From: Fimbriimonadales bacterium
GTDB taxonomy: Bacteria > Armatimonadota > Fimbriimonadia > Fimbriimonadales > Fimbriimonadaceae
Reading direction: 5' to 3'
Assembly: GCA_038222255.1 (NCBI GenBank)
Contig: JBBRHU010000001.1
Coordinates: forward strand, 8,031-72,030
Length of the DNA: 64,000 bases
Shown here: positions 39,813-51,732 of the stretch, piece by piece
How the letters are laid out: each line of letters starts with the position of its first letter
How positions within the stretch are numbered: the stretch's first letter is position 1
Program-made: the position numbers and the translations under genes
Notes under the pieces: model-generated
Seen by the model: only the letters and a program-made list of their open reading frames with translations
Told to the model about the DNA's origin: nothing
Database searches by the model: none

Positions 39813-39920
39813 TCTTCGAGGAGCATCCCGATGGGATCATGGTGAGACCTGCGATCGTCACTCCGATCGAGCGAGTTAAAGAAGCCCCAACTGAAGAAGC
39901 CTGATAACTCAGAGAGGAGT

Positions 39921-39936
39921 GTTCGGACATCCGAAC
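39921..39936. promoter_or_regulatory. Candidate parS site 1 (GTTCGGACATCCGAAC)
   Basis: One mismatch to the perfect palindromes at 49349 and 51715. Extended arms span 39916-39941. Lies between convergent genes, so it may also act as a terminator. Confidence 0.6.
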
Positions 39937-39968
39937 ACTCCCCATCCGTGGATTTGATTCGTCGAGGG

Positions 39969-41141
39969 CTATTTGCTGTTGAGCGCGACGATGTCGAGAA
40001 CCGCGTCCGCCACGTAGGCAATTTCCTCGTCGGAAATCTTCGTGCTGAGCGGAAGACTGATGATGCGATAGAAGTTCGCATCGGTGACCGGAACCGTGTC
40101 TCCAGTGAGCTGATACTTGTCTCGATAATAAGGGTGCAAGTGAATCGGAATGTAGTGAACCGAAACACCGATGTTGCGAGCCTTCAGCTCTTCGATGAAT
40201 TCGTCTCGCCCGATCCTAAGCTCATCTAGGTTCAACCTCAGCACATAGAGGTGCCACGAGCTTCGGACATCTGGCGACTCGTATGGGGTCTCGAGCGCGG
40301 CGCATCCAGCGAATCTAGCGCTGTAATAATCCGAAATGTGCTTTCTACGCGCATAGATTGCGTCCATCTTGCCGAGCTGCACCAAGCCCAATGCAGCCTG
40401 AATGTCGGTCATGTTGCACTTGTATCCGGCAGACACAACCTCATACTTCCAACTTCCGCCCTTTTGATATCGAGTGATGGCATCGCGGTTCATACCGTGC
40501 AATGAAAGCTCTTTGGCGATCTTGATCAACTCAGGGTCGCCTGTCAGCATCCCGCCCTCTGCGGTGGTCAAATTCTTCGTGGCGTAGAAGCTGAAGGAAG
40601 TAAGGTTTGGGCCGCTCCCAATAAATCGACCCTTGTAAGTCGCACCAACCGGGTGAGCGGCATCCTCAATGACAGGAATTCCGTGTGCGTCCGCAATCGC
40701 TTGAATGGCATCCATATCCGCCGGGTGGCCAGCATAGTGGACAGGCATGATCGCCTTGGTCTTGGATGTAATTGCAGCCTCGATCAATTTGGGATCCATG
40801 CACATCGTCTGGGGCTCGATGTCGATCAGGACCGGCTTGGCGTGAAGGTGTTCGATCACGTTGCATGTGGAGCAGAAGGTGTGAGCCACAGTGATGACTT
40901 CATCACCGCTACCAACGCCCAAAGTTGCGAGCGAGATGTGGAGTCCCGCGGTGCAAGAATTCAGTGCAAGACTAGCAGGCGAACCATAGGCTGCCGCAAA
41001 TGCCTCTTCGAACTTGCGAGTCTTTGGCCCGGTCGTTATCCAATCAGATTTTAGAGTCTCAACAACGGCTTCGATCTCTTCACTACCAATAGATGGAGGC
41101 GAAAATGGAATGTAATCTTCCCTGATTTTGAACGTAGGCAC
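39969..41141 (-). CDS. DegT-family aminotransferase (ArnB/PseC/PglE-like 4-aminotransferase)
   Basis: WITTGPK; NSCTAGLH; EDAAH; SFYATKNLTTAEGG; GYKCNMTDIQAA. Confidence 0.92.
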   Translation of the reverse strand: MPTFKIREDYIPFSPPSIGSEEIEAVVETLKSDWITTGPKTRKFEEAFAAAYGSPASLALNSCTAGLHISLATLGVGSGDEVITVAHTFCSTCNVIEHLHAKPVLIDIEPQTMCMDPKLIEAAITSKTKAIMPVHYAGHPADMDAIQAIADAHGIPVIEDAAHPVGATYKGRFIGSGPNLTSFSFYATKNLTTAEGGMLTGDPELIKIAKELSLHGMNRDAITRYQKGGSWKYEVVSAGYKCNMTDIQAALGLVQLGKMDAIYARRKHISDYYSARFAGCAALETPYESPDVRSSWHLYVLRLNLDELRIGRDEFIEELKARNIGVSVHYIPIHLHPYYRDKYQLTGDTVPVTDANFYRIISLPLSTKISDEEIAYVADAVLDIVALNSK

Positions 41142-41288
41142 CCGGCTATTTTACTTTCGATCCAAGCGCTCAGGGCATGTGTGAGCATAAATACCAAAAG
41201 CGCTCTAGTTGCGACGTGAGCACCCTAACCATCCCAAAGGCAGACTAGACCTAACCTGTTTCGAGGTACACCATCTCAAAAGCACGTT

Positions 41289-49742: not shown

Positions 49743-50765
49743 ATGGAAAAAAAGAGCGCGCTGATCCTAGGTGTAACTGGCCAAGATGGCTCATACCTTG
49801 CAGAATTTCTTTTGAAAATGGGCTACGACGTGCACGGCATTACGCGGCGCGCAAGCACGTTCAATACGTCGAGAATCGATCATCTGTTGGTTGATGTTCA
49901 CAGCGAAGAACCAGGGCTGAAGTTGCACTTCGGAGACCTCGCCGATGCGACGGGTCTTCGCCAAGTCTTTGAAAAGGTCCAACCGGACGAAGTCTATAAC
50001 CTGGGTGCACAGAGCCACGTCCGCGTTTCTTTTGACCAGCCAGAATATACGGCTGACGTTGTCGGAACCGGAACGTTGCGAGTGCTTGATATCCTGAAGG
50101 ACTACTCTCAGCGCACGGAGCAAAAGGTTCGTTTCTACCAAGCTGGGTCTTCAGAGATGTTTGGCGCCTCAGCCCCTCCGCAGAGTGAGGCCACGCCTTT
50201 CTATCCTCGGAGCCCGTATGCGGTCGCGAAGGTGGCTGCTCACTGGTACGGCGTGAACTATCGCGAGTCGTACAACCTGTTTATCTGCAACGGAATTCTT
50301 TTCAACCACGAGTCACCCAGGCGAGGTGAAACCTTCGTGACGAGAAAGATCACTCGCGCTGCAACACGAATCAAGCTTGGACTGCAAAGCAAGCTCTATC
50401 TAGGAAACCTTGACTCAAAGCGAGACTGGGGGTTTGCCGGAGACTACGTCGAAGCGATGTGGATGATGCTCCAGCAAGACGAGCCCGATGACTACGTGGT
50501 TGCAACCAATGAGGCCTATAGTGTTCGCGACTTCCTTGAGGAAACCTTCAGGCAGCTCGAACTAGATTGGCAAGACTACGTTGAGATCGATCCTCGCTAC
50601 TTCCGACCAGCCGAGGTGGATTACCTTCTTGGAGACCCAACAAAGGCCCGCGAGAAGATGGGTTGGAAACCCAAGGTCATGTTCTCTGAACTCGTCAAGA
50701 TGATGGTTGATGGCGACTTTGAGCTAGCTCGACGCGAACAAACCCTCAAGCAAGCCGGATTCTAA
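49743..50765 (+). CDS. gmd: GDP-mannose 4,6-dehydratase
   Basis: [10 protein letters not shown]; AQSHVRVSF; FYPRSPY; [18 protein letters not shown]. Confidence 0.97.
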
Positions 50766-50773
50766 AACTCCAA

Positions 50774-51700
50774 ATGGATCTATCAAGCAAGATATTCGTC
50801 GCCGGAAGCCGTGGGCTTGTCGGTTCGGCAATTACCCGCGCACTCGAAGCGCGGGGGCATACGAACCTCCTTACGCCAAACCGGGGAGAACTTGATCTTT
50901 TTGATCGAGAGAGTGTTGATCGCTTCTTCCGCGACGAACGACCAGAGTACGTGTTTCTTGCTGCTGCCAAGGTAGGTGGGATCAACGCGAACAATCTCTA
51001 TCCGGTGGAATTCCTGCGAGATAACTTGTGGATTGAGCTTAACGTGATTGATGCAGCGTTCAAACACGAAGCCAAAAAATTAGTGTTTTTGGGCTCAACT
51101 TGTATTTATCCTAAGCTTGCCCCGCAGCCGTTGGAGGAGAGTTCACTACTTACCGGCTCGCTGGAGCCTACAAATGAAGCCTATGCAATCGCTAAGATCG
51201 CGGGCATTAAGCTGTGTCAGGCATACAGCAAGCAATATGGATTCAGAGCTGTCTCGCTCATGCCGACGAACATCTATGGACCTGGAGACAACTTCGATCT
51301 CAAGAGCTCGCACGTGTTGCCTGCGCTTATTCGGAAGTTCTATGAGGCCAAGGTCAACGAGTCGGCAACTGTAACGATTTGGGGCAGTGGCACTCCTCGC
51401 CGAGAGTTTCTCTACTCAGATGACCTCGCCGATGCGTGCTTGTTCATCATGGATCACTACGAAGATCCGGAGATCATCAACGTCGGTTGTGGGGAAGACA
51501 TTCCGATTTCTGAGCTAGCTTGTCTGGTTTCGAAGGTCGTCGGCTATGAAGGTTCAATCGTATACGACTCCTCAATGCCAGACGGAACTCCCAGAAAACT
51601 GGTCGCTTGTGAAAAGCTGCACTCACTGGGTTGGCACCATAAGGTTTCACTAGAAGAAGGTATTGGTAGAACCTACCAGAGCTTCTTGCAGCAGGGCTAA
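50774..51700 (+). CDS. fcl: GDP-L-fucose synthase
   Basis: GLVGSA; AAAKVGGI; GSTCIYP; LEPTNEAYAIAK; SHVLPAL; PDGTPRK. Confidence 0.97.
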   Translation: MDLSSKIFVAGSRGLVGSAITRALEARGHTNLLTPNRGELDLFDRESVDRFFRDERPEYVFLAAAKVGGINANNLYPVEFLRDNLWIELNVIDAAFKHEAKKLVFLGSTCIYPKLAPQPLEESSLLTGSLEPTNEAYAIAKIAGIKLCQAYSKQYGFRAVSLMPTNIYGPGDNFDLKSSHVLPALIRKFYEAKVNESATVTIWGSGTPRREFLYSDDLADACLFIMDHYEDPEIINVGCGEDIPISELACLVSKVVGYEGSIVYDSSMPDGTPRKLVACEKLHSLGWHHKVSLEEGIGRTYQSFLQQG

Positions 51701-51712
51701 CCCTCCAGAATG

Positions 51713-51732
51713 TTGTTCGGACGTCCGAACAA
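51713..51732. promoter_or_regulatory. Candidate parS site 3
   Basis: Perfect palindrome TTGTTCGGACGTCCGAACAA, intergenic, no U-tract. Confidence 0.68.

Follow-up and report, generated by a model that had tools for sequence, protein, structure and literature searches.

What is the role of a 16-bp palindrome, GTTCGGACGTCCGAAC, that recurs in a 64,000-nucleotide stretch of DNA from a Fimbriimonadales bacterium and has one of its copies inside a parB gene? The stretch (hereafter the window) covers positions 8031-72030 of contig C1 of assembly G000, a metagenome-assembled genome of 3.42 Mb in 458 contigs that is 78% complete; C1 is its longest contig. A sequence-only reading of the window had proposed that the palindrome is a non-canonical parS site of a helix-turn-helix (HTH)-type ParB and is confined to one replicon, and comparative evidence now strongly supports that proposal. 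In its extended form, (G)TGTTCGGACGTCCGAACA(C), the palindrome is very probably (about 0.88) the parS centromere of a plasmid-borne ParABS system on a closed 72.4-kb Armatimonadota plasmid. The support is comparative throughout and comes from the sequence pattern of the sites, their distribution, selection on them at the nucleotide level, and their covariation with ParB.

A scan of the window found two exact copies and a third with one mismatch, and no further match at up to 3 mismatches, as the sequence-only reading had claimed. Three or more matches occurred in 0 of 100 dinucleotide shuffles of the window, where the mean was 0.33. A fourth copy is present on the same contig outside the window. 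The four sites are as follows.

39921-39936, no strand assigned: parS-like site 1, GTTCGGACATCCGAAC, with a single central mismatch and convergent genes on either side.
49349-49364, no strand assigned: parS-like site 2, exact, within parB, where it encodes V175-R176-T177-S178-E179 of the DNA-binding domain.
51715-51730, no strand assigned: parS-like site 3, exact; the 18-bp form TGTTCGGACGTCCGAACA spans 51714-51731.
C1:72226-72241: a fourth copy, ATTCGGACGTCCGAAC, about 196 bp past the window end and flanked by convergent genes.

The copy within parB encodes VRTSE in the open reading frame (ORF) at 48827-49630, just as had been read from the sequence. The three copies outside parB are all located at gene 3' ends, just past stop codons, and two of them are between convergent genes. 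Site 1 forms the core of a 26-bp near-palindrome at 39916-39941, and the stop codon of fcl, a GDP-fucose-synthase-like gene, is 15 bp before the start of site 3. The natural unit of the palindrome is 18-20 bp long, (G)TGTTCGGACGTCCGAACA(C), and its left flanks are rich in purines. An extended consensus of RRRG-TGTTCGGACGTCCGAACA-CYYY emerged from 22 pooled sites of relatives, and the flanks of some copies extend the stem to 24-28 bp.

The whole assembly contains exactly four copies at no more than one mismatch, against a chance expectation of about 0.04, and all four are on C1. The other 3.35 Mb contains none, and a single copy with two mismatches on contig C11 is at chance level (about 1). 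Confinement to one circular 72-kb contig excludes a scatter of the kind seen for terminators or repetitive extragenic palindromic (REP) elements. C1 has identical 141-bp ends with a methyltransferase-like gene running in frame over the junction, and we therefore take it to be a closed circle of 72,410 bp. Parts of a separate chromosomal system are found elsewhere in the assembly: dnaA is on C104, a second ParB with 38% identity to the plasmid protein is on C373, and exact copies of the canonical parS, TGTTNCACGTGAAACA, are on C147 and C159. The presence of a separate chromosomal ParB and canonical parS argues that the palindrome belongs to an accessory replicon. The palindrome itself does not match TGTTNCACGTGAAACA, since its core differs and its half-site is one base longer.

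Canonical parS is sparse across the genus (for example in G013, G023, G002, and G092), with 0-2 copies per genome at no more than one mismatch. The closed genome G013 has a single copy, and 1.35 Mb separates it from the chromosomal parB. Chromosomal partition in this lineage may depend on a reduced or atypical system.

The sites on C1 surround a compact maintenance module with the following parts.

45960-46175, plus strand: small cop-like gene, 71 aa from the ATG, conserved upstream of rep.
46177-48066, plus strand: rep, 629 aa, syntenic in all relatives.
46977-47152, plus strand: seven iterons, GGTTCCRAAATCGAACCG, spaced 23-31 bp apart, inside rep.
48015-48839, plus strand: parA, 274 aa, a Walker-type ATPase of the ParA/MinD family (AAA_31, 1.4e-46; CbiA).
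48827-49630, plus strand: parB, 267 aa, with ParB_N and HTH_ParB domains.

The module has the composition of a ParABS system. A Walker-type ParA is encoded beside parB in one operon, the pair is syntenic in all relatives, and a repeated dyad limited to the replicon is found near parAB and the origin. ParA has no N-terminal HTH extension, and its ORF overlaps the start of parB. Rep matches nothing in Pfam and, weakly, 'replication initiation O-like' in PHROG. The iteron array within rep is the probable origin, and the rep genes of relatives hold equivalent arrays. The four dyad sites extend from 7 kb before the iterons to 17 kb after them, and the cumulative GC skew reaches its lowest point about 9 kb away from the iterons, at about 36-38 kb. 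The cop-like protein has a weak likeness to ribbon-helix-helix proteins (RHH_1, E 0.004, under the curated cut-off). The cop promoter region of G000 (45869-45960) has its own inverted repeat, GGTGACCACAAAGTTGATCACC, and no copy of the palindrome; the corresponding place in several relatives holds a copy.

The distribution of the palindrome among other genomes follows the module. Across 228 genomes of the order, surveyed after a first 61 relatives, clusters of the palindrome occur solely on contigs with orthologues of cop, rep, parA, and parB, and genomes with a chromosomal ParB alone have zero copies or one lone near-copy. In the phylum as a whole (401 genomes), one family accounts for all the clusters. 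A blind search for the exact 20-mer in metagenome contigs gave 32 stretches, many of them on short contigs, and about 21 of these hold module orthologues beside the sites. Closed circles were also found among the relatives (G092:C7, 23 kb; G145:C16, 42 kb; G145:C17, 40 kb), each with a 55-bp overlap at its ends. What these plasmids have in common is only the cop-like gene, rep, parA, parB, a RadC-like gene, and a tyrosine recombinase. The family is absent from PLSDB, where no relative of Rep was found and the best ParB match is 37% identical. No relative of the plasmid ParB was found among viral contigs.

The site inside parB gives the clearest evidence of selection on the DNA itself. Every orthologous parB that we found has a site at the same codons. 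In 12 distinct parB genes carrying the form seen on C1 (G-type), all 16 nucleotides are invariant, including synonymous third positions; conserved L, T, R, S, and V residues adjacent to the site use three or four codons each in the same genes. Selection evidently acts on the palindrome at the nucleotide level and not on the peptide. A third copy is often found inside rep in relatives, and their distal site is within an HTH_17/MerR-like gene, in a different frame, where it encodes VFGRPNT.

A second form of the site, GTTCAGACGTCTGAAC (A-type), occurs on four plasmids (G014:C305, G076:C12, G092:C6, and G145:C16) and differs from the G-type symmetrically, at positions 5 and 12. No contig carries both types, and asymmetric hybrids are found as singletons only. 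A third symmetric type, with C or T at position 5, was likewise seen only as singletons in the 401 genomes of the phylum. Within parB the switch to A-type changes CGG to CAG (R176Q) with a mirrored synonymous change of TCC to TCT, and in the other frame of the HTH_17 gene it forces VFGRPNT to become VFRRLNT.

The type of site covaries with the DNA-binding domain of ParB, which is one of the checks that the sequence-only reading had named. Across 22 ParB sequences the only fixed differences between the site types are E160Q and R176Q. E160Q is in the recognition helix, KSxAxIN(E/Q)T, and R176Q is encoded by the intragenic site itself. Glu with G:C and Gln with A:T are pairings that agree with common amino-acid/base preferences. 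Fixed differences number 0 of 673 columns in Rep and 0 of 276 in ParA. The A-type ParBs do not form a single clade: 3 changes are required on the tree, and the approximately unbiased (AU) test rejects monophyly (p = 0.0115).

In two genomes a plasmid of each type is present, the two on different contigs (G092, C6 and C7; G145, C16 and C17). The co-resident pairs also differ in iteron type, which is either GGTTCCAAAATCGAACC-like or GTTCAAAAATCGAAGCG-like, and all four combinations of iteron type and parS type are present across the family. Independent assortment together with co-residence argues for incompatibility avoidance and against a coupling of iterons with parS. The two dialects probably let related plasmids coexist.

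ParB itself has the features expected of a partition protein. Its ParB_N (6.8e-27) and HTH_ParB (3.4e-17) domains are recognized by Pfam, PDB sequence matches to Spo0J, ParB, and Noc range from 1e-34 to 1e-27, and identity to chromosomal ParBs is 35-45%. The QPR, GERR, and ENIHR (ENxxR) motifs of ParB_N are retained, invariant in the alignment, and accompanied by a ParB-type HTH domain. The recognition helix is KSAASINETLRIL, in which E160 aligns with Caulobacter N178, adjacent to T179. At the position of Caulobacter R173 the plasmid ParBs have Ala or Pro, and the GHAR motif is replaced by RSVLLE. Box II (residues 81-89, encoded at 49067-49093) is GERRFTAAK throughout the plasmid family.

From these observations we infer roles for the palindrome in plasmid segregation and incompatibility, by way of ParB binding and CTP (cytidine triphosphate)-dependent spreading. 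The plasmid would replicate from the iterons inside its lambda-O-like rep gene, and a dimer of the CTPase-type HTH ParB would nucleate on the four dyad sites, in a 24-kb arc around the origin. Loading and spreading would proceed as in other ParB proteins, and the adjacent Walker ParA would segregate the plasmid copies. E160 in the recognition helix is predicted to read base pair 5/12 of the 16-mer, with A:T sites paired with Gln.

Several points weigh against this account. The covariation is based on four A-type plasmids only, and R176Q is forced by the embedded site, which makes E160Q the sole independent protein signal. The lack of A-type monophyly could reflect recombination of the HTH segment and not repeated mutation. 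The cop-like protein also has one fixed difference between site types, at residue 2, with only 2 A-type rows scorable. At the position of Arg in chromosomal ParBs (GERRxRA), Box II of the plasmid family has Thr or Ser, and CTP may accordingly be handled differently; the purine-rich extended flanks suggest a footprint beyond the classical 16 bp.

Two further kinds of element carry the palindrome. The AT-rich metagenome contigs L051 (1,748 bp) and L066 (2,020 bp), with a GC content of 36-37%, hold an operon of merR-like, parA, and parB genes. The ParB is 367 aa long and 30% identical to the plasmid ParB, and it keeps Glu at the helix position. Three 16-mers are located upstream of this operon and one downstream, and a copy with one mismatch falls in the N-terminal extension of the ParB, where it encodes KSVRTTEH. 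At the protein level, the relatives P0004-P0007 of the AT-rich ParB keep a VR(T/L)TG(H/Q) peptide at the same N-terminal place. ParB is the one sequence-specific DNA binder common to this element and the plasmids.

The second kind of element is a phage. L077 (ERZ824473 NODE-3985, 13,732 bp) and L078 (IMGVR_UViG_3300045988_154475, 13,866 bp) are 96.8% identical and represent one phage. This is a phi29-like podovirus of 13.8 kb with a GC content of 31%, a 29-bp inverted terminal repeat, and genes for a protein-primed DNA polymerase, a Gp16 ATPase, a Phi29-type capsid protein, and a connector. Ten copies of GTTCGGACGTCCGAAC with up to 2 mismatches are present in its genome, six to seven of them exact; the number of exact copies expected by chance is about 2e-7. 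Two sites flank the gene for a 241-aa protein (L078:12779-13504) that has a weak likeness to the ParB HTH and lacks a ParB_N domain. Its matches are weak (phrog_4715, 1.9e-4; hhalign, 63% probability and E = 7e-5; 29% identity over 62 aa to the AT-rich ParB), and its ParB-HTH likeness without ParB_N suggests that it may read the sites itself. By analogy with phi29 and Spo0J, the phage may hitch-hike on ParB-type segregation or interfere with it.

An alternative is that ParB acts as a KorB-like global regulator of the plasmid backbone and that the sites are its operators, or operators and centromeres both, and not chiefly centromeres. KorB is a detectable structural relative of ParB (8qa8, 2.5e-13), and a copy of the palindrome is located 45-130 bp upstream of the cop-rep operon in G002, G010, G015, and L065. 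The cop promoter lacks a copy in G000 and G014, however, the G000 sites outside parB are at gene 3' ends with two between convergent genes, and every element pairs parB with parA. Regulation and partition do not exclude each other; as the chief function of the sites, regulation seems unlikely.

It is less likely still that another protein binds the palindrome and that its association with parB is mere linkage. Since the module genes are all inherited together, co-occurrence by itself does not point to ParB in particular, and the cop-like ribbon-helix-helix protein, Rep, the tyrosine recombinase, and the MerR/HTH_17 protein of the relatives have all to be considered. The last has one site inside its gene, beside the relaxase gene. 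This candidate was rejected for the G000 plasmid, as the gene is absent from the whole assembly; HTH_17, TrwC, and TrwB are missing yet four sites persist, so they cannot account for the G000 sites. Rep has its own iterons and zero fixed differences between site types, the cop promoter of G000 bears a different inverted repeat, and a gapless, multi-copy palindrome is a poor substrate for a tyrosine recombinase. The AT-rich element, moreover, has only ParA and ParB in common with the plasmid.

The least probable reading is that of a structural or RNA element (a terminator hairpin or a repeat like REP or miniature inverted-repeat transposable elements) or a chance repeat: three of the four G000 copies directly follow stop codons and some stems are lengthened to 24-28 bp by their flanks, but no site has a T-tract or a loop or is classed as terminator-like, the palindrome is kept inside the coding sequence of three different genes and frames, and the rest of the genome is free of it, on which grounds the terminator/REP reading was rejected, as was chance by the shuffles and the genome-wide expectation.

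The genes around the module differ between the G000 plasmid and its relatives. In relatives, parB is followed by a gene for a 158-aa HTH_17/MerR-like protein and then by genes for a TrwC (MOBF) relaxase-helicase and a TrwB-type coupling protein, an arrangement seen at L031:13014-18121 (G002:C56) with equivalents in G010, G014, G092, G145, and BC.035. The relaxase and coupling protein, present in these related plasmids, are absent from C1; gmd, fcl, and an SLBB gene follow parB instead. The flanks of site 3 have no detectable homology, beyond the palindrome, to the DNA downstream of the relatives' parB. The sequence-only reading had taken the glycan genes for long-standing residents of the replicon. 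This part of it was not supported, since gmd-fcl-SLBB occupy the place of the relatives' HTH/TrwC/TrwB genes and this cargo is not shared; the glycan genes look like a lineage-specific replacement and later arrivals. Its suggestion of cross-talk with the iterons was not supported either, as iteron and palindrome types assort independently among related plasmids, and it is the parS core of that reading that stands. Apart from the module, the only shared backbone genes are the RadC-like JAB gene (38393-38677, minus strand) and the tyrosine recombinase (33097-34086, minus strand). In relatives a copy of the palindrome is located about 350 bp from radC, and in G000 an acyltransferase gene (38715-39812) intervenes.

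A wider reading that joins these elements is possible, and we offer it tentatively. GTTCGGACGTCCGAAC might be a second cross-lineage parS dialect for ParB-type HTH domains with a Glu helix. A single rule pairing Glu or Gln with G:C or A:T, acquired more than once, might then set the incompatibility groups of co-resident Armatimonadota plasmids, and the site lying within the stretch of parB for the DNA-binding domain would couple centromere and reader physically. The phi29-like phage, with its roughly ten copies and a protein that has only the ParB HTH, might exploit or disturb the same segregation.

The analysis yields the probable centromere, the ParB, and a full circular sequence for a plasmid family in a phylum that has been little studied and is for the most part uncultured. 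The natural pair of G-type and A-type sites is a compact, testable case for the evolution of ParB-parS specificity and hence of plasmid incompatibility: one symmetric base pair and one recognition-helix residue are involved, there is apparently more than one origin, and a site is inside the gene of its own reader. The 16-mer can serve as a marker for these plasmids in metagenomes, and orthogonal ParB/parS pairs are useful as DNA-labelling tools.

We found no prior description of the core TCGGACGTCCGA as parS in the literature searched, where it appears only in two unrelated eukaryote papers. The system has much in common with the chromosomal ParB/Spo0J-parS system. Both have a ParB_N CTPase fold with an HTH domain and a short Walker ParA partner, and both have a gapless palindrome with outer GTT..AAC and central ACGT, present in several copies around the origin with one in parB. 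An intragenic parS site has its precedent in spo0J of B. subtilis. Unlike the chromosomal GTTTCAC, the half-site here is GTTCGGAC, with the outer TGTT displaced one base outwards on each side. The R173 equivalent is Ala or Pro, RSVLLE stands in place of GHAR, and the plasmid exists beside a chromosome that keeps its own ParB and parS.

The Bsr partition systems of secondary replicons and plasmids in Burkholderiales are chromosome-like ParABS systems, and the parS palindromes they use are 16 bp long, rich in T at the 5' end, and have CG at the centre (PMC5450999). Their parS dialects are closely related and each is recognized narrowly by ParB, which is thought to keep co-resident replicons from becoming incompatible (PMC5450999). 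The parS of the present plasmid family shares these traits, both in the form of the palindrome and in having dialects. It differs in sequence, phylum, and ParB lineage, and its dialects differ by one symmetric base pair and follow one recognition-helix residue.

For the ParB/Noc switch, four specificity positions have been mapped (173, 179, 184, and 201; PMC7383237). R173 is invariant in parS-specific ParBs and is the Arg that reads G1 of canonical parS. There too, a symmetric change of the 16-bp palindrome, by one or two base pairs, is matched by few substitutions in the segment corresponding to Caulobacter 162-207. Here the positions are instead 160 and 176, both proteins stay partition ParBs, and one covarying residue is encoded by the binding site itself.

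Phage phi29 has five parS sites that are bound by the Spo0J of its host (PMC2731898). The small phi29-like phage described here similarly bears many parS-type palindromes that also serve ParB elsewhere, but it has about 10 copies in 13.8 kb and its own 241-aa ParB-HTH-like protein. The system is of a known kind, a plasmid ParABS that has a parS of its own and most resembles the Bsr systems in its logic; what is new is the palindrome sequence, the plasmid family, the E/Q switch, and the phage lead.

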